Virus record (IMG/VR): IMGVR_UViG_3300043473_000010
Span: 1-41,861 of that record
Source of the DNA: a virus
Taxonomy: Duplodnaviria > Caudoviricetes
DNA length: 41,861 nucleotides
Direction: 5' to 3' (one strand)
The notes under the pieces were generated by a model. The model was not told the origin of the DNA. It ran no database searches and saw only the letters and a program-made list of their open reading frames with translations. A program made the translations under genes and the position numbers. How positions within the stretch are numbered: position 1 is the stretch's first letter; the number at the start of each line of letters is the position of its first letter. Of this stretch, positions 374 through 41,486 are shown one piece after another.

Positions 374-402
374 TTGCATTATGGGCCGCGCCCGTGTATA
401 GT
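374..402 (+). promoter_or_regulatory. sigma70-like promoter for the packaging operon
   Basis: TTGCAT (374-379) - 17 bp - TATAGT (397-402); ATG at 410 lies 7 nt downstream, suggesting a leaderless transcript. Confidence 0.7.
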
Positions 403-2048: not shown

Positions 2049-4639
2049 TGACCGCAGCGAACAGCGACGACCAGATGTCCCGTGGAGCAGCGGCGTTGGA
2101 GAAGATATCCGACTTTGGCGAGGGCAAGGTCGGCCAACTCAAGCGATGGAAGGCCGAGCTGGACGCCGGGAAGAGGTCCGAGCAGAACTGGCACAAGAAA
2201 GGCGAAAAGACACTCAAGCGTTACCGCGACGAGCGGGACGCTGTGGACGCCCAGGACCGCAAATTCAACATCCTGTGGGCGAATGTGCAGACGCTCAAGC
2301 CTGCGGTGTACTCGAAACCACCGTCGCCGGAGGTATCACGCCGGTTTGACACTTCCAGTCAGGTCAACCGGGTAGCCGCGTCCATAATGGAGCGGAACCT
2401 GCATTTCACGGTGTGCGAACACTCCATGTTCGACGCCACGATGAACCAATGCGTGGAAGATCGGCTGCTACCGGGCCGGGGAACAGCGTGGGTCCGCTAC
2501 GTGGCGGATTTGAAGCCCGTGTATCACACGCGGCCGACGGCGTTGCCGCCCATTCCACCCCCGCAGCCAGAGCAACCTCAACCCCCTATGCCGGGGACGC
2601 CAGAAGGAGCGCCGCCGCCGCCGCAAGGGGGAGTCCCCGGTGCCGCCCCAATGGGCGGACCCCCGGCACCCCCTCAGCTTCCGCAACCCCCTCAAGGTCC
2701 ACCGGGGATGCCGCCGCCGACGCAGCCGCCGATCGAGCAGTTGCCTCCCGGCCCTCTGCCGATGTTGGGAGCGCCACAGCCGACGCCGCTGCCGCAGACG
2801 CCCCCGCAGTCGCCGGATGCGCAGAACAAGGCCGTCACGGGCGATGCGTACGAGTCGCAGGTCATCAGTGGCGAGCAAATCTGCTTTGACTACGTGTATT
2901 GGAAAGACTTCCGCATGTCGCCGTGCCGGACATGGGATGAGTGCTGTTGGGTTGCCCGTCGCGTGTACATGACGCGGGAGAACGGCAACAAGCGGTTCGG
3001 GGAAGCCGTGTTTAAGGACGTACCGCTGAACCACACGGAGAAAATCACCGAGGAAGACAAGCTCGGGAACAAGCCTTTCGGCCCCGGCAGTGGCGTGCTC
3101 AAGAAAGCGGCCATTTGGGAGATCTGGAGCAAAGATGACCTCAAGGTTTACTGGCTCTGCGAGGACCACACGGAAATCCTCGATGTGCGGGACGACCTGT
3201 TCCAGCTGGACGACTTCTTCCCGTGCCCGAAGCCGTTGCTCGCAACAACGACTAACGAAAGCACAATTCCTATTCCTGATTACTGCATGTACCAGGATCA
3301 AGCACAGGAACTCGATCAGATCACGAATCGTATATCTCTCCTTACGCAAGCTCTTAAGGTTATCGGCCTTTATGATAAGACGCAGGATGGAGTTCAAAGG
3401 CTCCTTACGGAGGGCGTAGACAATGTGATGATCCCGGTGGACAACTGGGCCATGTTTGCCGAACGCGGCGGGCTCAAGGGGACGGTTGACTTCTTCCCAG
3501 TGGAACTGGTGTCCAAGGTCCTCACGCAACTGATTACGGACCGTGGGACGGTTAAGCAAGACATCTACGAAATTACGGGCATTGCCGACATCGTGCGTGG
3601 TGCGAGCGTGGCCTCGGAAACGGCCACCGCGCAGACCATCAAGGAGAAGTTCGCCAATATTCGTATCAACGACGTACAGAAGGACATTGCGCGGTTTGCG
3701 AGCGACTTGGTGAACATGGCCGCGCAGTTGATGACCAATTTCTTCCAACCGGAGACGTTGATCATCAATGCGGACCTTGCGGATCCCGAGGGACCGGATT
3801 TCCAGTACGTTCCACAGGCCGTCCAGCTGATAAAGGACGGCAAACTGATCCAACACAAGATTACGGTCAGCGTCGATGCCATTACGGAGCAGGATGACAA
3901 GGACGAGCAGACCGCCCGGAATGACTTTATGCAGAATTTCGGGTTCCTGATGCAGCAGATGGTGCCCGCAGTGGAGAAGATGCCGCAAATTGCGCCGATG
4001 ATCGGTCATATCATGCTGTGGTCGGTGCGTGGCTTCAAGATAGGCCGCGACATAGAAGGGGAGATCGAGCAGGGCATCGCGCAGATGGCGAAGCAAGGGC
4101 CACCCGAGCCACCGCCTGATCCAGCAGCGCAGAAGCTCCAGGCGGAGGCGCAGGCGCATCAGCAAGCCATGCAGCAGGAGCAGGAGAAGCACCAAGCCGA
4201 CGCGGCGCGGGAACAGGAGCTGCTTGGGATAAAGAAGCAGGGCAACGAGGAAGACCTGCGATACACGAATGCCAAGCACGAGGAAGAGCTCAATTTCATG
4301 CGGCAAAAGAACGCACTTGCGTTGGAGGCCATCGCGTTGACGACCACGGCGAAGGTGGACGCCGCCGCACAGCAGACGCAGCAGGACCTCGCCGCTACGG
4401 GCACCGCTCACGTACAGAAACTCGCGCATACGGACGAAATGCAGGCGCAGAAACTGGCGCATGGGGCCGCGGAGGGTCTGCAAGGACTCGCACAAGCCGA
4501 TCAAACACATGCTCAGGGGTTGGATCAAGGTGCGGAAGCACATGCTCAGGGGCAGGCGCAAGAAGCGGATGCTGCCGCGCAAGCTCTCGCACAGGCTGAG
4601 GCAGCGGCAAAAGCGAAGAAGGAGCCTGGAAATGCCTAG
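2048..4639 (+). CDS. Portal protein with Pro-rich insertion and long C-terminal extension
   Basis: Follows terL with TAATG overlap; FNILWANVQTL, FFPCPKPL, YEITGIADIVRG and ETATAQ resemble podovirus-type portals. Confidence 0.85.
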   Translation: MTAANSDDQMSRGAAALEKISDFGEGKVGQLKRWKAELDAGKRSEQNWHKKGEKTLKRYRDERDAVDAQDRKFNILWANVQTLKPAVYSKPPSPEVSRRFDTSSQVNRVAASIMERNLHFTVCEHSMFDATMNQCVEDRLLPGRGTAWVRYVADLKPVYHTRPTALPPIPPPQPEQPQPPMPGTPEGAPPPPQGGVPGAAPMGGPPAPPQLPQPPQGPPGMPPPTQPPIEQLPPGPLPMLGAPQPTPLPQTPPQSPDAQNKAVTGDAYESQVISGEQICFDYVYWKDFRMSPCRTWDECCWVARRVYMTRENGNKRFGEAVFKDVPLNHTEKITEEDKLGNKPFGPGSGVLKKAAIWEIWSKDDLKVYWLCEDHTEILDVRDDLFQLDDFFPCPKPLLATTTNESTIPIPDYCMYQDQAQELDQITNRISLLTQALKVIGLYDKTQDGVQRLLTEGVDNVMIPVDNWAMFAERGGLKGTVDFFPVELVSKVLTQLITDRGTVKQDIYEITGIADIVRGASVASETATAQTIKEKFANIRINDVQKDIARFASDLVNMAAQLMTNFFQPETLIINADLADPEGPDFQYVPQAVQLIKDGKLIQHKITVSVDAITEQDDKDEQTARNDFMQNFGFLMQQMVPAVEKMPQIAPMIGHIMLWSVRGFKIGRDIEGEIEQGIAQMAKQGPPEPPPDPAAQKLQAEAQAHQQAMQQEQEKHQADAAREQELLGIKKQGNEEDLRYTNAKHEEELNFMRQKNALALEAIALTTTAKVDAAAQQTQQDLAATGTAHVQKLAHTDEMQAQKLAHGAAEGLQGLAQADQTHAQGLDQGAEAHAQGQAQEADAAAQALAQAEAAAKAKKEPGNA

Positions 4640-4772
4640 CGTTAGCAAGAAGCAAGCGAAGTTCATGCAAGCGGCGGCGCACAACTCCAAGTTCGCCGCT
4701 AAGGCGAAGATTCCACAGTCCGTCGCCAAGGAATTCGTGGCTGCGGACAAGGGTAAGGCGAGGAAGAAATGA
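4632..4772 (+). CDS. Small basic phage protein (MPSVSKKQAKFMQAAAH...)
   Basis: GGAG RBS, overlaps the portal stop; MPS.SKKQ..FM.AAAH type N-terminus is typical of small head-module genes. Confidence 0.7.
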   Translation: MPSVSKKQAKFMQAAAHNSKFAAKAKIPQSVAKEFVAADKGKARKK

Positions 4773-5077
4773 GACGCAGGTTTCGCTATGATCGAGCTAC
4801 GGATAGCATGGTGGAAGTACCTATTGATCCAGAGGTGGAAAGACTGCCGATGGTGCATGGGGATATTCCAGCGTTTGTTTCCCCGCTCGATGGCAGTTCC
4901 GTTCAAGGGCGTCGCGCTTACGAAGACCACATGCGTCGGCACAACGTCGTCCCTTTCGAAAAGGGAGATGAGAATCGCAAGCCAGTATTCAACACGCCGC
5001 AGGAGAAGCAGGCGCGGCGTGAGATGATCTGGGAATACACAGATCGCGTATCACGAGGTCACAAGGCTCGGGACTAA
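4769..5077 (+). CDS. Hypothetical head-module protein
   Basis: ATGA coupling to the previous gene; SPLDG...RR....HMRRHN motif. Confidence 0.7.
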   Translation: MRRRFRYDRATDSMVEVPIDPEVERLPMVHGDIPAFVSPLDGSSVQGRRAYEDHMRRHNVVPFEKGDENRKPVFNTPQEKQARREMIWEYTDRVSRGHKARD

Positions 5078-5090
5078 CCTAGAGGACGAC

Positions 5091-6170
5091 ATGCCACCGG
5101 AAGAACAAGCACCCCCATCAATAGCGGATTCTCTCAATGCTGCCATTGACACCGTCGAACAAGCAACTCCACCCACACCCGAACCTGCCGCCCCGGCGGA
5201 AGCGCCGAGTGGTGACCAGACGCCCGCGCCTGCGGCCCGCGAGGGGCGTGATTCGCGTGGGAGGTTTGTAGGTGGAAAGACGGCGGACACACCGGCTCAT
5301 CTGGGACGTCCTGACGCGCCAGACGCGGCGACCGCTCCCGCGAGTCCGCAAGCTCCGGCTGCGCCAGTGGATCCTGCAACGGGTCAGCCTCCGGCGCAAA
5401 CGCCCGCTGCCGACGTTGCTCCTGCGGCGTGGAAAGATGATGCCAAGGCGCAATGGGGGAAGTTGGATCCGTCCCTCAAAGCCGAAATAACACGCCGAGA
5501 GCGCGAAATTACCGTCGGTCTCCAACGGGCGGGCGATGCTCGCAAGTTTGGTGATTCCATCATGGGGGAGTTCGCCCCCTATGCGGAGATTCTGCAACAG
5601 GAAGGCGCGACGCCGCAGGCGGCAATTCGAGCACTGCTGGAAACGAGCTACACGCTCCGCTATGGCTCCCCCGAGCACAAGCAGGCGCTCTTCATGTCCC
5701 TCGCGCAGCAGTACGGCATCGATCTCAAAAGGCAGATCGACCCCGAAAAGGCGCGGTTGGAATGGCAGGCTGACTCCCGTACCATCAACGACGCCCGCGC
5801 CGGTACTCAGCAGCAGGTTCGGCTTCAGCAGGAAGTACAGACCGAGTTGGAGCAGTTTGTCAATGCTCCGGGGCACGAGTATTATGAGCGGGTGCGGCCT
5901 GCGATGGCCGGGTTGCTGACCAGTGGCGGTGCTGCGAATCTGCAGGACGCCTACGACCGCGCTTGTTGGGCGGACCCTCAAGTGCGGGTGGCTCTTCAGC
6001 AAGCGGCTGACATTGCCCGTGCTGCCTCGCAGTCCAAGAACCGCAATGCGCTCGCTGCGGTGAATGGGGCTCCCGGCGCTGTCGCGGTAACGCCGACGGC
6101 AGGAGCTGATCCAAGCAAGCTGAGGGAGTTCCTAGAAGCTCAATTCACGAGCCCTGGAGGTCGTGTATAA
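5091..6170 (+). CDS. Putative capsid scaffolding protein
   Basis: Lies between portal and capsid; Pro/Ala-rich N-terminus, helical core, LQDAYDRACWADP motif. Confidence 0.7.
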   Translation: MPPEEQAPPSIADSLNAAIDTVEQATPPTPEPAAPAEAPSGDQTPAPAAREGRDSRGRFVGGKTADTPAHLGRPDAPDAATAPASPQAPAAPVDPATGQPPAQTPAADVAPAAWKDDAKAQWGKLDPSLKAEITRREREITVGLQRAGDARKFGDSIMGEFAPYAEILQQEGATPQAAIRALLETSYTLRYGSPEHKQALFMSLAQQYGIDLKRQIDPEKARLEWQADSRTINDARAGTQQQVRLQQEVQTELEQFVNAPGHEYYERVRPAMAGLLTSGGAANLQDAYDRACWADPQVRVALQQAADIARAASQSKNRNALAAVNGAPGAVAVTPTAGADPSKLREFLEAQFTSPGGRV

Positions 6171-6175
6171 AGTGC

Positions 6176-6204
6176 TTGCATTTGGGGCCGGGGTGGCGCA
6201 CACT
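6176..6204 (+). promoter_or_regulatory. sigma70-like promoter for the capsid gene
   Basis: TTGCAT - 17 bp - CACACT; shares the AAGTGCTTGCATTnnGGGCCG context with the promoter at 374. Confidence 0.55.
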
Positions 6205-10373: not shown

Positions 10374-10948
10374 TGGGACTCGAAGCTGTCATTGAATCAA
10401 ACACGTTTGACAATCGGTTTGCGGCCGATGACAAACTCTACGTCGTGTTCGCGATGCACGCCGTACAGAACGGTTTCCAAACCGAGCAACAGGGTCGCCC
10501 CATTTTCGACGACGTACCGCATGTTCGTATTCACGTGCCGGGTGATAAGACCTCCGTGGTGGAGCGCCCCGTCATCGAAGAAGACAAGATGCGCTTCCCC
10601 CGGCAGTGGGAGAAGTTCCAGAAGAACATGTCACAGGCACCGGAAGGCACCCCGCTGGAACAGTGGCCCCTGCTGACCATCGGGCAGGTGATGGAATTTA
10701 AGGCGCTCAACGTGTTCACCGTGGAACAGCTCGCGGGCATGGCCGACGTTCAGGCGCAGCGGTTCATGGGCGGACACGAAATGCGTCGCAAGGCTGTGGC
10801 GTTCCTTGCCTCCGCCAAGAATACCGCCGAGGCGCAGCGGCTCGCCACGGCCAATGCCGAACTGGAGCAGCGGCTTGACGCCAAGGATGAAATCATCCGG
10901 CAGATGGGCGCACGGTTGGAGGCACTGGAGCAGAAGCAGAAGAAGTAA
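10373..10948 (+). CDS. Conserved phage hypothetical protein with C-terminal coiled coil
   Basis: GRPIF, RFPRQW, GTPLEQWP, TVEQLA motifs recurrent in podovirus head-tail regions. Confidence 0.75.
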   Translation: MGLEAVIESNTFDNRFAADDKLYVVFAMHAVQNGFQTEQQGRPIFDDVPHVRIHVPGDKTSVVERPVIEEDKMRFPRQWEKFQKNMSQAPEGTPLEQWPLLTIGQVMEFKALNVFTVEQLAGMADVQAQRFMGGHEMRRKAVAFLASAKNTAEAQRLATANAELEQRLDAKDEIIRQMGARLEALEQKQKK

Positions 10949-22692: not shown

Positions 22693-23337
22693 ATGAAGTA
22701 CATCGTCTTCGGCCTGTGCGTCACACTTACCGGGTGCGCCACCACTCTTGATCCGAACTACGCACTCCAGTTGGAAAGCTACCGGCTGACGATCTCGGCG
22801 CAGCAGTCCGTGGAGATCGCCAAGGCGAATGCCGAAGCTGCCCGGTACGCTGCAATGGCGGCAATCGCAGAACGTGCGGATGCCCAGACCAAGAGCATGG
22901 CGTTGTTCGCATTGGCGCTGTCGGGGCGTGGTGAATCTGCTGCCCGCCCGGTGGAGGTTCAGCTTCCACGTATACCGGAGACGCAAGAGGACCGTGCGCT
23001 GAAGTGGGCCAGTGTGTTCGCCGGGCCAACGACAGCCTTGGTCACTTCCTACTTCGGCTACCAGTTGGGTAAGACGCAGAGCAACAATCAGGCGGCTACG
23101 ACACAGAGCTCCTACGCCGCACTGGTTTCCATGAAGCCCGTACAGCCCCCGTTTGTACCGACGACGCAGACCATCAACACCATCACGACCAACACCGACG
23201 CGTGGGTTACGAACCGTGACGGACTCGTGATTGTGGGAGGGGCACAACCAACGTCAGGCTCGCAGGACAATAGCACGCGGCCCGTCGTGGTTCCACCCGT
23301 CGTACCCATCGTACCCGTCGTGGTGACGAATCCCTAA
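22693..23337 (+). CDS. Lipoprotein
   Basis: Signal peptide II with lipobox LTGC; helical body; Pro/Val-rich tail. Confidence 0.75.
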   Translation: MKYIVFGLCVTLTGCATTLDPNYALQLESYRLTISAQQSVEIAKANAEAARYAAMAAIAERADAQTKSMALFALALSGRGESAARPVEVQLPRIPETQEDRALKWASVFAGPTTALVTSYFGYQLGKTQSNNQAATTQSSYAALVSMKPVQPPFVPTTQTINTITTNTDAWVTNRDGLVIVGGAQPTSGSQDNSTRPVVVPPVVPIVPVVVTNP

Positions 23338-23473
23338 GGTACTTCAGTAGGGCGTTGTTCTGCTCTATATTGGCCGCTATCTTCGGGGCGTGCCTGCGGA
23401 TTGTTCGCGCTATCAGTTCTGATAGTGTCAGGTGCGCGATACGCACCCAGTACAGCCGCTTGGCTTTCTTCAA
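23207..23473 (-). CDS. Small protein resembling the major capsid N-terminal arm
   Basis: TTG start with GGGAGG RBS; residues 18-46 align ungapped to capsid residues 9-37 with 14/29 identities. Confidence 0.6.
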   Translation of the reverse strand: MKKAKRLYWVRIAHLTLSELIARTIRRHAPKIAANIEQNNALLKYLRDSSPRRVRWVRRVEPRRAACYCPASLTLVVPLPQSRVRHGS

Positions 23474-23478
23474 AGCTC

Positions 23479-23543
23479 AGCCCTCCCCGGAAGCATTGCA
23501 CGACCGGGAAGGGCTTCGCCACTACAGCTCCCACCACAGGAGT
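23479..23543 (-). ncRNA. Putative trans-acting antisense sRNA / leader RNA
   Basis: Begins just after a sigma70-like promoter; 5' ACUCCUGUGGUGGGAG is complementary to the RBS motif of ten - strand genes; 3' GC-rich hairpin 23479-23515. Confidence 0.6.
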
Positions 23544-23550
23544 GAAACAA

Positions 23551-23579
23551 AGTATGGCATAATCCCCCGCAAAACGCAA
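23551..23579 (-). promoter_or_regulatory. sigma70-like promoter with extended -10
   Basis: Minus strand TTGCGT - 17 bp - CATACT, with TGn preceding the -10. Confidence 0.7.
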
Positions 23580-23676
23580 GCATTCGTTCCATTACAGCAT
23601 GACACCGAATAAAAGCGGGCTTTTGGGGCATTATTTTTGGGCCGGGTAGGGTAGGGTATGTACCGTTTGGCCGTGC

Positions 23677-23880
23677 TTATGGCGACCCGTTTGATGGCTC
23701 TGGCTTGGCTTCCCAGTAGGCACCCGTGGGGCCGCAATGGGGGATTTGCGGGTTTTCCACGTAGGTACGTGTCATGTAGCAGTCCGCAGGGTCCCCCGTC
23801 ACGTTATCAACCAGTTCGGGGTGGCCGCACTGGTTGATTTCCTTGTAGTGCTTGCACTGTTTGCAGATGCGGAGGGCCAT
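23677..23880 (-). CDS. Small Cys-rich hypothetical protein
   Basis: CKQCKH...C.HP...C...R...CGPTG; coupled to the upstream gene. Confidence 0.7.
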   Translation of the reverse strand: MALRICKQCKHYKEINQCGHPELVDNVTGDPADCYMTRTYVENPQIPHCGPTGAYWEAKPEPSNGSP

Positions 23881-24350
23881 TACCTGTCCTGGTTCACGTA
23901 GGCCGGGGTGGCATCACCCTCCGAAACCTTTGCCGCGATGTCTTCGCACTCTATCGCGTTGTGGTGCGCCCACGGCGGCTCAAACTCCTGGCAGTGTATC
24001 TTCGTGCGGCAGCGCCCACAGGTATAGAGGAAGCCTTCCTTGTGAGAACCCTCAAATACGAAGCCGACCCACCCGCTAGGTTTCACGTACTGGAGGAACT
24101 CTGCAAACGTGGGCTGCGGCACCGACTGGCGCACGGGATGTTTCTCTGCAAGCTCAATCATCTTGTCGATAAAGTGCCGCGCTTTGCGTAGGTCGTTCGA
24201 GCCGCCCTTGTCGCGATAGCGCATGATGTACTTGATAGTCTGCGCTTGGAAGTAGTCCCACCCGTGGATGACCACGAGGTTCCAGTGCTGAAACTCTGGC
24301 GGGCACTTCTTGTAGTGCGAACCGTCTTCTTGGTGAGTGTCAACATTCAC
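23880..24350 (-). CDS. DUF3310-like protein with C-terminal Cys/His motif
   Basis: Q..GSHY, IKYIMRYRDKGG..DLRKA..FIDKMIE. Confidence 0.8.
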   Translation of the reverse strand: MNVDTHQEDGSHYKKCPPEFQHWNLVVIHGWDYFQAQTIKYIMRYRDKGGSNDLRKARHFIDKMIELAEKHPVRQSVPQPTFAEFLQYVKPSGWVGFVFEGSHKEGFLYTCGRCRTKIHCQEFEPPWAHHNAIECEDIAAKVSEGDATPAYVNQDR

Positions 24351-25375
24351 TGATCTTCTCCAATGTGCCCGTGGTGAGGCTGACCAAATTCCCGGTCAGC
24401 TTTTTCTTTCAGATACCTCCGCTCCAACCATTCGTAACAGGCGACGCCCCAGTCGCAGCCGGGTATGGCCCCGATACAGCCTAGCGCCGCTTCCCATTCC
24501 CCCGCCTTGTGGAAGCCCCACGCGTCCCATATGCGGCACACGTACTCGGTGAAGTAACTGGTGATAAAGTGGTGGCTTTCCTCCGGGTTGGCTAGGAACA
24601 TCGCCAAGTCCTCATCGAACTCGTCAACAGTGCAGAGCATGGGGAGCGCCCGCATGTTGTTTGTCAGGTAACGGTCATCCGAATGCGGAACGAAGGACAG
24701 CTTTTCGTACTGCTCGTTCAAGTAAACGTGGGCGTTGAAGCTGACCTGGTGATACAGCCCCACGGGCACGCCAACTCTGCGAGCCATGTACTCCTGCAGG
24801 AATGCGAAGTGTACGGCATTGGCCCCGCACATTCCCCAGATGATGTCGTTGCTGCGGTTGGTCACCATCATGTCCAACCTGCCGTCGTTGACCTGAAACA
24901 TGGCGCTCAGGTTGCAGGGGATGTCTTTACGCCCCTCCTCCAGTGTGAGGTCCTTTGCCGGGTCCCACATCGTAACCACTGCTCGCCGCGACGTAGAGTC
25001 TTCTTGGAGCAGCCGCGCCGCAACGGTTAGCTGATCATAATCCCAGTGCTGCCGCCACCGATAGCCGTAGGCACCCTCCAGTATGACCCCGTCATCGCTG
25101 TACTCCTTCATACGGGGCAGAAATTTGGCGAGAAACTCTACGTCCTCCCGCCCGCCAAGCATCCACAGTGCCTCCATAAAGTGGAAGAATGGGTTGGCGT
25201 CGCGCATGGGGTTGAACAGTACCCGCTCCTGCGGATGAGTGTACGTGACGCATACCGGGGCGTTGAGCTTCAGGGCGGGGCCGTTGCGGGTATCGACCTT
25301 GACGCTACTGGTCTTCACACGCCAGAGCATATCGCACAGCGCACCGTTGACATTCCGTGCTATGACTACGTGCAT
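24347..25375 (-). CDS. Thymidylate synthase homolog, probable dUMP hydroxymethylase
   Basis: GAYGYRW, SRRAV, catalytic DIPCN, RSNDIIWG..GAN (Asn indicates dUMP specificity), NAHVY. Confidence 0.85.
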   Translation of the reverse strand: MHVVIARNVNGALCDMLWRVKTSSVKVDTRNGPALKLNAPVCVTYTHPQERVLFNPMRDANPFFHFMEALWMLGGREDVEFLAKFLPRMKEYSDDGVILEGAYGYRWRQHWDYDQLTVAARLLQEDSTSRRAVVTMWDPAKDLTLEEGRKDIPCNLSAMFQVNDGRLDMMVTNRSNDIIWGMCGANAVHFAFLQEYMARRVGVPVGLYHQVSFNAHVYLNEQYEKLSFVPHSDDRYLTNNMRALPMLCTVDEFDEDLAMFLANPEESHHFITSYFTEYVCRIWDAWGFHKAGEWEAALGCIGAIPGCDWGVACYEWLERRYLKEKADREFGQPHHGHIGEDQ

Positions 25376-25396
25376 CGCTTTCTCCTTGTGGTGGGA

Positions 25397-27340
25397 CTAC
25401 GACAGCTTACTGCCCTTCATCGGTGGGTCCGGATTGAGTGATATCTCGGGCCACGGCCCCAGTTTCCTACGAAAGATGGTGGTTTGGCCGGGGCCGGGTG
25501 TTTCTCCTAGGGTGTCATTCCATACGCGCACCTTTTCTAAGCCCGCGGCTTTCAAAGCCGCTGAAATTTGCATACTCCGCTGATGGTTCTTGTGTGAATT
25601 GTCAAGTTGCATGTACGCATAGACGTAGTCTACCGTGACGTAGGCGTAAGTTTCATAGTCCACCTTACTGCCCGCTGTCAGCGACTTGTACCGGGGCAGC
25701 GTACGAAGATCACGGGTGGCCCGCTGCACTGTTTCAGCAAACGGTGAAAGAGTATTCCGCGCTCTGACAACCAACTCCGCCTTGGCACCCGGCATTTCCC
25801 ACCACTCGTAACCGTCCCTGAACATCTGCACCGCTTCCGCAAGTATCTGGTCGCGGTTTTGTTCAATCAGGTCCACTTCCACAAGGTATCCGCAGCGTAC
25901 CGGCCAGAAACGTCGCCCACCCGTTTCATCCGTGAGGTAGGTGTCCTCGTTCGTGGTGCCGACAATCACGCACTGTCGTTTCTGGGTAACGCTGAGCCGA
26001 CCATAGGGTAGGCGAAAGGTATCCTCGGAGGAAGACAGCAGTGATTTAATGGTGGCGTGGTCGGACTTCCGCATGGCCCGTAACTCGTTGATGTCATATA
26101 TCCACGCCCCGGCCATGTTCTGCAGAAAGTCCTTACTGCCCACATCGTGGACAGTGCTTTCCCGGTAGTAATCACCCCCGATTGCGCGTAGCGCACGGCT
26201 CTTCCCGATGCCCTGCCCACCTTCAAGGATCAGCATATTGTCAGCCTTACAGCCGGGGCGCAGCGCTCGGGCCACTAGGGAAACGAGCCAGTTCTTACTC
26301 ACGGCCCGTAGATATTCTTTGTCTTCCGCCGAGTTGCAGTAGTTTTCGAAGAATGTTTCCACCCGCTTTTCACCGTCCCACTTAATATCCTCCAGATACT
26401 CGACCAGAGGGTTACGGCGAAAACGTGGATTTTGGAACACCTTGAGGAGCGCATCTTCTATGGTGCCTCTTTTGAATGATGGTTCCACCTCGTGCTGAAA
26501 CTTGCCCAAGATACGGATGGCGTCTCCGTCTTCCATTGGCTTGTTGTCTATGACGGGCTTCTGCATAAAGGCGTCGTACCACACGTTATCCTTGAACCAG
26601 TCGTGGACTTGCATGATGCGGGCGGCGTTTTCTGCGTTGGGGATTATCCGGTCAAACTGACCCTGTGTTCTAGCCCCGCTGCGGTAGGCAAGGCTCGCCA
26701 CGCCATCCCACAAATCGTGTCCGTTGTGCCGGGGCAGCTTGTCAAATCCGGCACCATTGGTAGCGACTAGCCAGTCATCAAACCCGACCTTATCGCGGCC
26801 CTCGGGCAGTGTCACCACCACTGGAATACGGCCCGCGTCACGCAACGCCAAGCAGAGTTCAGCAAGACCATGCTGTACCTGCGAATTCGTACGATAGTCG
26901 CCATCGAAGATGATCTCAACCGTAGCTCCCTCCGGTATAGCTTCCAGTATGTGCGGGCTGACAGTACGGTGAACCCGCGCATTCTTCGGCCCTTTCCAGT
27001 TATGACAGCCGCCGATACCTATCGCCGTCATCTTAAGGAACTTCCACGCGGCGGCAGCTTTCTTTTCACCCTCTATAATCCAATGCTTCACGCGTTCGTG
27101 GGCACCGCGCCAGTCAGCACCGGGTACGAAGTATGGATAGGGAGCCACCCCCGCAGCCTGAGTATACTTGCTCCCGTCCTCCGCCGGTTCGAACCTGCGG
27201 ATACGGAACATGTGAGGGTGGACTTCCCCAGTGGGTAGGAAGTAGGGGATTCTATATCCGAAATTGCCTTCTAGTGCAACACGCATGTCTTCGGGAACAA
27301 GACCGCTCCGAGCAAGATCGGATACAATCAATTCCATCAT
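25397..27340 (-). CDS. Primase-helicase (DUF3854/Toprim-like primase plus VapE/VirE-like ATPase)
   Basis: IIEGEKKA, GIGG, FDGD, GFDDW; PGCKAD.MLILEGGQGIGKS, FRLPYG, GTTN, DETGGRRFWP. Confidence 0.9.
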   Translation of the reverse strand: MMELIVSDLARSGLVPEDMRVALEGNFGYRIPYFLPTGEVHPHMFRIRRFEPAEDGSKYTQAAGVAPYPYFVPGADWRGAHERVKHWIIEGEKKAAAAWKFLKMTAIGIGGCHNWKGPKNARVHRTVSPHILEAIPEGATVEIIFDGDYRTNSQVQHGLAELCLALRDAGRIPVVVTLPEGRDKVGFDDWLVATNGAGFDKLPRHNGHDLWDGVASLAYRSGARTQGQFDRIIPNAENAARIMQVHDWFKDNVWYDAFMQKPVIDNKPMEDGDAIRILGKFQHEVEPSFKRGTIEDALLKVFQNPRFRRNPLVEYLEDIKWDGEKRVETFFENYCNSAEDKEYLRAVSKNWLVSLVARALRPGCKADNMLILEGGQGIGKSRALRAIGGDYYRESTVHDVGSKDFLQNMAGAWIYDINELRAMRKSDHATIKSLLSSSEDTFRLPYGRLSVTQKRQCVIVGTTNEDTYLTDETGGRRFWPVRCGYLVEVDLIEQNRDQILAEAVQMFRDGYEWWEMPGAKAELVVRARNTLSPFAETVQRATRDLRTLPRYKSLTAGSKVDYETYAYVTVDYVYAYMQLDNSHKNHQRSMQISAALKAAGLEKVRVWNDTLGETPGPGQTTIFRRKLGPWPEISLNPDPPMKGSKLS

Positions 27341-27378
27341 GTGGGGAACTCTTCAGAGGTGGGGTGGCACGGGTGTAA

Positions 27379-27407
27379 AGTTTACGCCCGTGGCCGGTAG
27401 CATACAA
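27379..27407 (-). promoter_or_regulatory. sigma70-like promoter for the primase/TS operon
   Basis: TTGTAT - 17 bp - TAAACT; the -10 lies in a near-perfect palindrome at 27368-27392. Confidence 0.6.
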
Positions 27408-27433
27408 CCCCCAACTCGTTCTAAGACCTTGTT

Positions 27434-28261
27434 TTAATTGCCATTTCTGTAGGACGTCGGAGTGTAGATCTGCTTGGGAGTACCTTCTCCATTCTTAGCC
27501 CGACTCCACTTGTCAAACTCGCAGAGACAGTTCTGCAGATTCTGCGCGTCCAACGGTTTGGGGAGGGACTGGATAACGGGGATAAGCTCCACGCTCAGTT
27601 CTACCAGTGTTTCCCGAAAGAGCTGCGGGGGCCACTTGAACTTCAGTGGTCTGTCCATCACACGGTTCAGCCCCCGTTGGCTTCCCGGCCCCGGAGTACA
27701 CCAAGTCCACCAGTCTTCAGCGTTGGCGAGTACGGGCTGTTGCTTCAGGTCCGCCACCATCTGCCCCGCCATGAATGACCCTACGCCTCGGACCGCTTGG
27801 AACATATTCGCAGCCTCGGATAGTGTTTCCTGGCCCGATAGGTGGACCTCCTCGTGTACCCGCGTCACCAACTCCACGACATATTCCAGCTTGTCCTGTT
27901 TGATACCGTTGGTGCTGACGATGTAGGCGGGGTTGAATACCCGGTTGCCACTGGAGCGCCAGATGTTCAGGTTGGCTAGAACAGCCGCAGGCTCCCACGG
28001 GGAACACGGCCCCAGAGTCTTCAACGTCCGTGGCTCGTTAATGTATCGTGCCAGTGCCACCCGCGCTTCGCAGTGATGAGCATACGGTCCCAACCAGTCA
28101 GCGATGAACTCCGACACGGGGTCCCACTCCCGGTACACGTTGCAGAAGCGATACGTGCGGAGGATGGTATCCGCTGTCCATGGGGGCGGTTCGCCCCGGC
28201 CACGGCGGAGGGCCATTTCCACCCGTTCCTTGATGAAGTAGCTCAGGTCTACGATGTTCAT
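27434..28261 (-). CDS. 5-hydroxymethyluracil DNA kinase (aGPT-Pplase1 family)
   Basis: PWTAD.IL..YRFCNVYRE.D, GVGSFMAGQMVADL, PGPGS.RGLNR, QNCLCEFDK signature motifs. Confidence 0.85.
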   Translation of the reverse strand: MNIVDLSYFIKERVEMALRRGRGEPPPWTADTILRTYRFCNVYREWDPVSEFIADWLGPYAHHCEARVALARYINEPRTLKTLGPCSPWEPAAVLANLNIWRSSGNRVFNPAYIVSTNGIKQDKLEYVVELVTRVHEEVHLSGQETLSEAANMFQAVRGVGSFMAGQMVADLKQQPVLANAEDWWTWCTPGPGSQRGLNRVMDRPLKFKWPPQLFRETLVELSVELIPVIQSLPKPLDAQNLQNCLCEFDKWSRAKNGEGTPKQIYTPTSYRNGN

Positions 28262-29073
28262 GGCTGACGCGGTCCACGGCTGATGCGCGGCAGACCTTCA
28301 GCACGTTCTGCGATGGGGGCCGGGTAGCAGTCCGTCACGAGCTTGCCCCAAGAGATGACTACTTCCTTGCGGGGCTTACCGTCAAACCATCCGGCCTTTG
28401 TTGCTTTCTCCACTAGCCGGGTGTAGTCGGGGTGCCATCTGTTGATCTGCTCGTGGCAGGCGTTGTGATATTCTAGCGTCCGGTAGGTAGAAGCGCCACC
28501 GGGGGACTGACTTTCCTTTTGGTCCTGCACCGTGAGGTACGTGACCCAGTTGGAGTAGCCCATCCGTATCAGCTGGATGGTCATTTCCAGGTCGTCTACC
28601 GGGCAGGTAAACTTCAGGTCATGCTCCTTGATGATATCGGCCCGTAGTCCCCACGCACGGGTGATGCGCCCGTTGAGGACCGTATCCTCCTGATTGTTGG
28701 CGAACAGCCTCGCCCCCACGCCAACATGAGCATACTCCTCCAACGCCGCCGCGACATCCATCAGCGTTTGGTGAAGCTGTGGCCGGGAGGCGGGCAGATA
28801 CTTGCGACTGCCAGGAATGCGGCAGGCCCAGTTTCCCAAGTCGTCGTCCAGCATTAGGACGCTCTTGTCGGGGCTGTTGTTGATGATCCACTGGCGCGTC
28901 GCGCCAATGCGTTCGGCCGGACAGGCTACGGCAGTATATCCGGCAGCTTGAAAGCCCGTAACCTCTTCAGGTGGGCAGACAAGTGTGATGGGAAATACGG
29001 ATACCGGGGCCAGAATATCTGCCGTTTTCTGAAGCCGTGGTCCGCGACCTTTGGTGGGAATGTAGATGTGCAT
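28258..29073 (-). CDS. GT-A fold glycosyltransferase (TAGT/GREB1/JGT-like)
   Basis: IYIPTKGR, RQWI, MLDDD (DxD), DDLE...QL...GY.N, QSPGG.S.YR, HP..T.LV.K. Confidence 0.8.
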   Translation of the reverse strand: MHIYIPTKGRGPRLQKTADILAPVSVFPITLVCPPEEVTGFQAAGYTAVACPAERIGATRQWIINNSPDKSVLMLDDDLGNWACRIPGSRKYLPASRPQLHQTLMDVAAALEEYAHVGVGARLFANNQEDTVLNGRITRAWGLRADIIKEHDLKFTCPVDDLEMTIQLIRMGYSNWVTYLTVQDQKESQSPGGASTYRTLEYHNACHEQINRWHPDYTRLVEKATKAGWFDGKPRKEVVISWGKLVTDCYPAPIAERAEGLPRISRGPRQP

Positions 29074-29808: not shown

Positions 29809-29838
29809 AGACCTCCTTGTGTGGTGGACAGCAACCCC

Positions 29839-35223: not shown

Positions 35224-35248
35224 TTCTACCTCCTGTGGTGGACTACGT

Positions 35249-36427: not shown

Positions 36428-36743
36428 GGAACTCCTCTGTGGTGGGAAACGTAAGTGCTGAACTTCTACGGCCCTTGCGCTGCGCGTCACGTATATTCTG
36501 TAGAGCCGTCCCCAGAAACAAGTGGGCCGGGTTGCAGCACAGACGATTATCGCAGGTGTGGCAGACATACATACCCGTGGGGATGACACCGTTTGTCAAC
36601 GCCCACGCTGTTCTGTGGGCGCTAAACGATTTGGACCCATAGTTGAATCGCCCATACCCGCGACCGTTCTGTCTTCCAAGCCAAGGCCAACATTCGGTGT
36701 CATTGCCTGAGCTGACCTTGGACCAGAGAAGGGCGGGTTGCAT
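36306..36743 (-). CDS. HNH endonuclease
   Basis: [35 protein letters not shown]. Confidence 0.9.
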
Positions 36744-37246: not shown

Positions 37247-37263
37247 GCTTTCCTCTGTGGTGG

Positions 37264-38491: not shown

Positions 38492-38536
38492 TCCTGCTCC
38501 TTGGTGGGTGGGCCGGGTTGCCCCGGCCCGGTTGAG

Positions 38537-38743: not shown

Positions 38744-38784
38744 TTGAATCTCCTTTCGTGGTGTGAAACTTCTGCTATACATAC

Positions 38785-39738: not shown

Positions 39739-39942
39739 CTAATTCTCCTTTGTGGTGAGATCGCGTTGGTTGCCGTACCACCGGACGTTCCCCATCGCGA
39801 GGCTAGGGTTCGGTCGGCCGACATAGGTTGCGTGGCGGTCGTCCACCTTTATCCAGGGGAACTCCGTGCCTGCCACGCGCAGGCAAAACTCTTTATCGTT
39901 GGTCCGGAATGCCGTGCCAACGGGAATTTGATCAAAGGTCAT
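39739..39942 (-). CDS. Small early hypothetical protein
   Basis: MTFDQIPVGTAF start with GGAG RBS; ATGA coupling. Confidence 0.65.
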   Translation of the reverse strand: MTFDQIPVGTAFRTNDKEFCLRVAGTEFPWIKVDDRHATYVGRPNPSLAMGNVRWYGNQRDLTTKEN

Positions 39943-40470: not shown

Positions 40471-40506
40471 TTCTAATTCTCCTTCGTGGTGGGGTGCAAC
40501 AAGACC

Positions 40507-40764: not shown

Positions 40765-41202
40765 TTACGCCTTGGCGGTTTCGGTGGTCGCCGGGGCCGG
40801 GGCCGTGGCAACCGGGTTCAGCGTAATAAACCCGTGGGCCAAATCCCACGCAATGTTGGCCGTCAGCAAGGCAAATTTTCCCTTGTGCCCGGCCTTGGCG
40901 GAATTTTCCATGCACGCGGCCAAGGTCTGGCCGGGCACGTAAAATCCAAACGCGGTATGCGCCGCACAGCCCGCGCGTTTCGGGTTGGGCACAACGGTCG
41001 CCACGGTCTGTTGCAGGTGGAAATTCGCCCGCGTAACGTAGCGCGGCGCTTTCGCCGGGGCCACGGCATTCGCCGCAACCTGCGCGGGCGTAATCGCCGT
41101 GGTTTTGTTTTCGGCCGGGGCCGGGGCCGCTTGCGCGGGCGTGGTCACAACGGGCGTGCTAGGCGCTTGCGCGGCCTTTTTCGTGCTGTTACGCTTTGCC
41201 AT
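40765..41202 (-). CDS. First gene of the - arm; Ala/Pro/Thr-rich protein with NPKR...WDLAHGFI domain
   Basis: GGAG RBS, own promoter and terminator; paralogous to the C-terminus of 29143..29808. Confidence 0.8.
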   Translation of the reverse strand: MAKRNSTKKAAQAPSTPVVTTPAQAAPAPAENKTTAITPAQVAANAVAPAKAPRYVTRANFHLQQTVATVVPNPKRAGCAAHTAFGFYVPGQTLAACMENSAKAGHKGKFALLTANIAWDLAHGFITLNPVATAPAPATTETAKA

Positions 41203-41262
41203 TTTTCAACTCCAATGGTGGTGGTTTGGCAAGGGCCGGTCGGCCCCTGCACAGGTACATAG

Positions 41263-41279
41263 AGCAAGGGCCGTGCCAA
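41263..41279 (-). promoter_or_regulatory. sigma54 (-24/-12) promoter
   Basis: Minus strand TTGGCACGGCCCTTGCT matches the YTGGCACGNNNNTTGCW consensus, about 60 nt upstream of ATG 41202. Confidence 0.7.
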
Positions 41280-41486
41280 GACGCCGCTCGGGGGCCAAGT
41301 ATTTGGACGGACCCATTAGCGGGCCGTAGGCGGGCGAGAGGGTGGCGGTAGCTGCTAGGGTAGTACCGGGTGGGCCTGGAGCGCTTGTGGTCGCGTTTAG
41401 CAGGCTTGCCGGGGCTCTGTAGGGTGCGGGGCCAGTACCGGGCCGGGGCCAATGCCGGCAAGACCACAATGGGAGCATGGGTACTC

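Follow-up and report, generated by a model that had tools for sequence, protein, structure and literature searches.

The window analysed here, a complete virus record of 41,861 nt with direct terminal repeats, carries a sequence motif whose use at ribosome-binding sites (RBSs) is confined to the early gene arm, together with one reversed copy at a predicted transcription start, an arrangement that is well above chance. We propose that the element containing the reversed copy specifies a trans-acting anti-RBS RNA of the phage, which is probably made late and likely blocks the translation of ten motif-bearing early genes, and we place the probability of this reading at about 0.55. An early-to-late switch operated in trans by an RNA directed against Shine-Dalgarno (SD) sequences had been suggested by a previous sequence-only reading; pairing of the seed with the early RBS motif is supported by the promoter class, the null models, the conservation and a matched pair in a second lineage, but a terminator with a U-tract is missing.

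Genome organization and relatives in cultured phages and metagenomes

The plus-strand arm encodes terminase, portal, capsid and tail proteins, and the minus-strand arm encodes DNA polymerase, helicase, primase/helicase, a thymidylate synthase homologue, a glycosyltransferase and small early genes; the labels "early" and "late" for arms, RBSs and promoters are inferred from this gene content. No integrase was found among the window proteins scanned. On the minus strand, the stretch 24347-29073 combines the thymidylate synthase homologue (YuA/M6-like, 45%) with a 5-hmdU DNA kinase domain and the glycosyltransferase, and these genes likely form a thymidine hypermodification cluster. The nearest capsid from a cultured phage is that of Stenotrophomonas phage BUCT555 (63% identity), followed by those of Mx9 and Mx8 (56%); no related DNA was found in cultured phages, and the BUCT555 genome lacks the reversed-copy element. 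Among sequencing runs, the best DNA matches to the window are soil metagenomes, and none of the 11 matching runs listed was an RNA run. Contigs from eight DNA runs include one (X2) identical to the window over 23250-23560 and one (X3) without differences over 23520-23702, and no diverged version of the element was present among them.

A shared motif at early ribosome-binding sites

A CCACCAC-N(1-4)-GGAG motif had been reported at ten sites, and all ten are present at the positions in Table 1, each 4-8 nt before a minus-strand ATG; eight are strict (CACCAC-N1-4-GGAG), but those at 37251 and 38497 are variants. The pattern CACCAC-N0-5-GGAG occurs 11 times in the window versus 0.69 times in 200 dinucleotide shuffles (maximum 4), with ten copies on the minus strand and one on the plus strand at 23532. 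The reversed copy is thus indeed the single plus-strand match, but the earlier list of sites had left out two minus-strand copies (483-495 and 10552-10561), both located away from gene starts. The complement of these two copies would fall in plus-strand late mRNA, and the copy at 10552-10561 ranked 2/630 in a first anti-SD scan.

With variants counted, the motif is found at 10/22 early-arm versus 0/17 late-arm RBSs (Fisher p 0.002), and in its strict form at 8/22 early-arm RBSs (p 0.006), the RBS sets being those of our own gene caller and limited to starts with a GGA-containing SD. A perfect duplex with the seed needs a 1-nt spacer, which only one of the ten targets has. The motif-bearing genes come after a stop codon or a gap, and three of them are close to predicted transcript starts. 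The polymerase, exonuclease and helicase genes have no motif and abut their upstream neighbours, so translational coupling would have to carry any block to them.

Table 1. Coordinates of the reversed-copy element, its matching sites and associated features in the window
Feature	Position	Strand	Remarks
Promoter of the element's class, head of structural arm	374..402	+	flanks match the element's promoter 13/20 (16/20 in G001)
Promoter of the element's class, before major capsid gene	6176..6204	+	flanks match the element's promoter 13/20
ORF, TTG start, 88 aa	23207..23473	-	SD inside 3' arm of GC hairpin; another ORF in its place in G001
Predicted RNA, about 72 nt: seed hairpin, linker, long GC hairpin	23472..23543	-	72/72 nt identical in G001; fold z -3.2
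GC hairpin, 12 bp, no U-tract	23479..23515	-	3' arm holds SD (GGAGG) of next ORF
Seed: anti-SD CUCC plus GUGGUGG, 5-bp hairpin, open GUGGU loop	23528..23543	-	rank 1/505
Extended -10, TG-C-CATACT	23551..23559	-	17-nt spacer; predicted start 23544/23543; identical in G001
-35 hexamer TTGCGT of predicted promoter	23574..23579	-	fits the phage's own promoter class
Target motif, RBS of thymidylate synthase homologue	25382..25396	-	predicted binding -15.1 kcal/mol; 14 nt with 1-nt bulge; kept in G001
Target motif near 5' end of predicted early transcript (promoter 29867)	29812..29828	-	kept in G001; weak in ensemble model, G001 orthologue -9.7
Target motif, perfect 12-nt complement	35230..35241	-	-15.3 kcal/mol
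Target motif, strongest site, 15 bp with 2-nt bulge	36431..36447	-	-22.3 kcal/mol
Target motif variant, AGGA end without last G	37251..37263	-	-13.9 kcal/mol
Target motif variant lacking one C, DUF932 gene	38497..38508	-	-13.6 kcal/mol
Target motif behind early promoter 38813	38750..38763	-	-14.8 kcal/mol
Target motif	39745..39760	-	-14.6 kcal/mol
Target motif behind extended -10 element	40479..40493	-	-18.0 kcal/mol
Target motif, 4-nt spacer, weak site	41209..41224	-	-9.7 kcal/mol

A predicted promoter of the phage's own class at the reversed copy

The sequence does contain the promoter that had been named as the start of the RNA, TTGCGT-17-CATACT with a TG extension of the -10, but it scores only 7/12 and was missed by a generic sigma-70 scan. 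It fits a pattern particular to this phage, TTGC[AG][TC]-17-YAYA[ACG]T, which was defined after the element's site had been seen and which has five matches in the window versus 0.14 in shuffles (maximum 2). Besides the match at the element, one heads the structural arm, one precedes the capsid gene and two precede early units. A start from this class of promoter falls within about 2 nt of the seed, for which we estimate a frequency of approximately 0.4% at an intergenic position.

The element's -35 hexamers in the window and in its closest relative, G001, recur at the orthologous capsid and terminase promoters of G001, which carry TTGCGT and TTGCGC, respectively. The flanks of the element's promoter agree with those of the structural-arm promoters at 13, 13, 16 and 13 of 20 positions and with those of the early promoters at 9, 11, 9 and 11 of 20. 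The element's promoter is slightly more similar to the two structural-arm promoters than to the two early ones, which gives a weak hint that it is a late one. The promoters on the plus strand (359-379) and at the element (23574-23593, minus strand) share an upstream stretch, AATGGAA-N-GAA-(G)-TGC, which is a possible activator site and is missing from the G001 terminase promoter. At 23551-23562, divergent -10 elements overlap, with a plus-strand extended -10 (TG-G-CATAAT) around the palindrome TATG-C-CATA.

Structure and ends of the predicted RNA

Both hairpins attributed to the RNA, one at the 5' end with a GUGGU loop and one GC-rich at the 3' end, fold as had been described, and none of 200 shuffled sequences was as stable (z -3.2). 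In the seed hairpin, the loop is predicted to be open (unpaired probability 0.8-1.0), but the anti-SD CUCC is paired. The GC hairpin is more stable on the minus strand than on the plus strand (-25.5 versus -20.1 kcal/mol, a difference of 5.4). An RNA of about 65 nt ending in this hairpin had been proposed; the hairpin is there, but no intrinsic terminator was called at it in the terminator scan, only three U residues follow it, and the conserved unit ends at 23472, which gives a predicted RNA of about 72 nt. Protein coding across the element was rejected, because its sequence is fully identical in G001, with no synonymous changes, and the overlapping ORFs have different ends there. Rfam searches of the window and of the G003 locus (L133) gave no family match for the element at the gathering threshold, with one chance-level hit (E 0.31), and the GcvB and C4 covariance models likewise had no match in either.

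Seed complementarity and target ranking

Every anti-SD-bearing stretch was aligned to all RBSs, with the alignment anchored on the SD. Among 505 non-RBS anti-SD candidates, 22 of them intergenic, the reversed copy ranks first (z 5.3). Simulated intergenic DNA from a Markov model reaches the element's score in 1/300 trials, and shuffled seeds that keep the anti-SD core ACUCC do as well in 3/200. In the ranking and in both of these tests, the complementarity of the seed to several RBS regions exceeds chance. With structure included, the best nine of 39 RBSs are all in the early arm (-22.3 to -13.6 kcal/mol) and comprise eight of the previously listed sites plus a new one at 24350; binding is weak at 41202 and 29808, and energies of -10 to -11.7 kcal/mol are predicted for five late-arm RBSs as well. 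A ranking by raw duplex energy was discarded as a target score because G+C content dominated it.

Conservation of the element and a matched pair in a second lineage

G001 is 84% identical to the window over 29,231 aligned bases and fully identical across 23472-23573, a run of 102 nt that includes the promoter spacer, the seed and the hairpin. Upstream of this run the two genomes agree at 73/96 positions and downstream they are unrelated, so the seed and hairpin are retained in front of different genes. No identical run in the early arm is longer, but three elsewhere are (146, 122 and 104 nt), which places this one fourth overall, so that recent exchange could explain the identity. The early strand of G001 keeps motif sites.

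A more distant relative, G003 (capsid 85% and primase 37% identical to those of the window), has no CACCAC sites at its RBSs and instead carries CTAGGAG at 6/17 early and 0/13 late RBSs. Its early strand also carries a single reversed copy, located between genes behind the primase stop (L133, 16879-16940), which perfectly matches the first early gene over 13 nt, ranks 1/411 (z 5.9) and is not equalled in any of 300 null trials. The window's best nine targets bind the G003 RNA less well than their own, and the best five targets of G003, all early-arm, prefer the G003 RNA. No promoter could be recognised at the G003 copy, its fold is unremarkable (z +0.8 to +1.8) and it shows no clear homology to the window element; it therefore represents a matched pair in a second lineage rather than proven covariation. 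The copy is followed by a G6/C6 stem, and a small hydrophobic ORF that has no SD begins behind the C-rich arm of this stem.

A scan of 39 records, which were the longer contigs from capsid, thymidylate synthase, tail and lipoprotein scans, yielded three above z 5, namely the window, G001 and G003. The other 36 records (best z 3.5) and 25 further loci (21 longer ones of 80 metagenome loci and four viral loci; best z 3.1) had no such element. G004, G005 and G055 were left out as too short, and coverage of G015, G031, G049 and G054 stopped before their ends. At least five similar RBSs occur in each of five records, and in two of these, G053 and the partial L190, a reversed copy is absent, so a shared RBS motif is combined with a reversed copy in two of four independent lineages. 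L190, a metagenome contig covered over 16 of its 25.7 kb, has a TAGGAGC-like motif at six RBSs, the reversed copy being absent from the covered part. Two further candidate carriers, G006 and L214, owed their signal to a long repeat and a same-orientation copy and disappeared once orientation was required. The capsid scan covered 36/64 parts of the viral collection and the metagenome scan 17/64, so relatives may have been missed. DNA-pattern searches of viral contigs returned G001 as the sole relative (1/16 and 1/54), and scans of genome contigs found no close relative (best capsid 63%), with 44 loci from there lying outside the element scan. Among the other records, G002 has short GC-rich tandem repeats at both ends (1-190 and about 41250-41311), and in G048 (3986-5970) the capsid gene match is split into two pieces about 1 kb apart, possibly by an intron or insertion.

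The downstream gene and the mode of action

Directly behind the element, residues 13-47 of the predicted 88-aa product resemble the N-terminus of the major capsid protein (43% identity; pairwise E 1e-6, whole-genome tblastn E 0.001) and are 43-47% identical to the capsids of many relatives, so the ORF may encode a capsid-peptide mimic or represent a remnant. Its last 131 nt overlap a lipoprotein-like gene on the opposite strand. In G001, a different ORF of 97 aa with a motif RBS follows the element (L128, 9115-9408), and the seed folds in cis onto this RBS (z -5.8). No homologues of either downstream ORF were found beyond the G001 protein itself. The SD hidden in the hairpin of the window and the cis fold of G001 together suggest that the predicted RNA may also be an mRNA leader.

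These features bear on an unlikely alternative, namely that the element acts in cis, either as a leader locking the RBS of the next gene or as the 3' end of early-arm mRNA folding back in an icaR-like manner, the other RBS matches being a by-product of a shared translation enhancer. The leader version would account for the G001 fold and for the concealed SD of the window. The fold-back version is consistent with the G003 copy, which closely follows the primase stop and is predicted to pair with the RBS of that gene at -16.5 kcal/mol, and with the terminator scan, which called none in the interval from the last early gene to the element; early-arm mRNA running into the region would carry the same seed. 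In Bacillus subtilis, long-range anti-SD folding does repress, and repression of this kind is general (PMC12697547). However, the cis duplex of G001 (-30.7) is no stronger than those at distant sites (-30.5, -29.6 and -32.8), the window keeps the seed although its downstream gene has no motif, a 3' fold-back needs no promoter placed at the seed, and the best target in G003 lies 15 kb away in another transcription unit. Cis and trans action can coexist and are not mutually exclusive.

It is quite improbable that the motif instead serves as an ACA-type enhancer or is bound by an RNA-binding protein of the phage or the host, with the plus-strand copy serving as a decoy in late read-through RNA or being a left-over RBS. 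The variable CACCAC-GGAG spacer, and the ability of many sites to form weak stems of 2-4 bp that place ACCAC in the loop, would suit a protein; the CsrA/RsmA-type operator consensus consists of CANGGA-type sites, which a minority of the ten sites fit as judged by eye, and no CsrA- or RegA-like family occurs among 26 proteins scanned. The window has a weak DUF3310 gene, and DUF3310 has been speculated to act on genes with start-associated sequences (SAS) (PMC11373665), but it is missing from G003, which has a motif and a copy, and present in G008 and G011, which have neither. DUF3310 was rejected as the reader of the motif, as it does not track the motif in five records. An enhancer would agree with the C/A-rich tracts that commonly precede the SD in relatives and with the rise in translation attributed to ACA motifs (PMC3879156), but no late RBS uses the motif. 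The plus-strand copy precedes ATG-GCA-TAA at 11 nt, as a left-over RBS might, but in G003 no start codon follows the copy on the opposite strand, and both the hairpin energy and the promoter favour the minus strand. Least likely of all is a copy that has no pairing function and arose by chance or was left by recombination next to a small accessory gene's promoter, for although the region is a gene-swap hotspot, long identical tracts exist elsewhere too and most relatives have no element, the nulls of 1/300 and 0/300 in two lineages, the coincidence of the reversed copy with a predicted start and the shared layout of K1 mycobacteriophages speak against it.

Under the preferred trans-acting reading, host RNA polymerase is predicted to start at the phage-class promoter, 7-8 nt before the seed, at a time that the promoter likeness weakly suggests to be late. 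The open GUGGU loop would nucleate on ACCAC, the 5-bp stem would open and CUCC would then cover GGAG. Initiation would thereby be blocked at genes heading translation units, and the block could spread to the coupled replication genes. As the U-tract is lacking, the active species may be a processed RNA or a read-through RNA that also leads the downstream ORF.

Comparison with known systems

The closest counterpart in layout is found in cluster K mycobacteriophages, whose SAS form an extended motif at the RBSs of 11-19 non-structural genes and nearly all share one orientation (PMC3203893, PMC11373665). About half of the SAS are preceded by 17-bp inverted repeats, termed ESAS. In K1 phages, a single SAS in the opposite orientation is not tied to a gene start (PMC3203893). 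In the right 31.6 kb of Adephagia, we counted 16 forward SAS and one reversed; the latter (L419, 30683-30695) falls in the intergenic region of genes 92 and 93, where it sits in the tip of a long stem-loop that is on the same strand as the SAS genes. Like SAS, the window motif is located at RBSs of non-structural genes only and has one orientation plus a single reversed copy. Unlike SAS, it is bipartite with a variable spacer, its reversed copy lies at a predicted transcription start, its sequence is unrelated (by eye, against the 13-bp SAS consensus), and phage and host group differ. The SAS authors allowed for an RNA or a protein site (PMC3203893), the role was still called "ill-defined" in 2024 (PMC11373665), and the available portions of these papers propose no antisense RNA. 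The sequence-only reading had known of no described equivalent; in the mostly open-access literature searched, no phage RNA was found that is directed at an RBS motif shared by the phage's early genes, but the novelty of the arrangement needs qualifying, since its layout is described for cluster K1 mycobacteriophages.

Tentatively, and with some doubt, lytic phages in general might time the early-to-late switch by one late RNA that reads a genome-specific address in early RBSs, with seed and address being lineage-specific and the SAS motifs of cluster K being such addresses. If true, this would give a testable function to repeated start-associated motifs, a question that has stood since 2011 in cluster K mycobacteriophages, for which a cultured phage with RNA-seq data exists, and would provide a compact control part in which one RNA addresses many RBSs.

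Early-gene shut-off in phages is usually credited to proteins. Among RNA regulators, GcvB is Hfq-dependent. GcvB of enteric bacteria resembles the predicted RNA in using one G/U-rich seed against ACA elements beside the SD of several mRNAs to block translation, but is host-encoded and directed at amino acid uptake genes (PMC3879156). The c4 RNA of P1/P7 is likewise a phage RNA whose loops pair near the RBS of an mRNA encoded elsewhere and block translation; however, it controls an antirepressor transcript for immunity in temperate phages (PMC12197685, a review that also tabulates 38 unassigned phage sRNAs), whereas the element matches ten RBSs in several transcription units. In the icaR 3'UTR of Staphylococcus aureus, an anti-SD at the 3' end of a transcription unit pairs with an RBS, an arrangement that the G003 copy resembles most; icaR has one target on the same mRNA (PMC3868564), whereas the element has its own predicted promoter and many matching RBSs.
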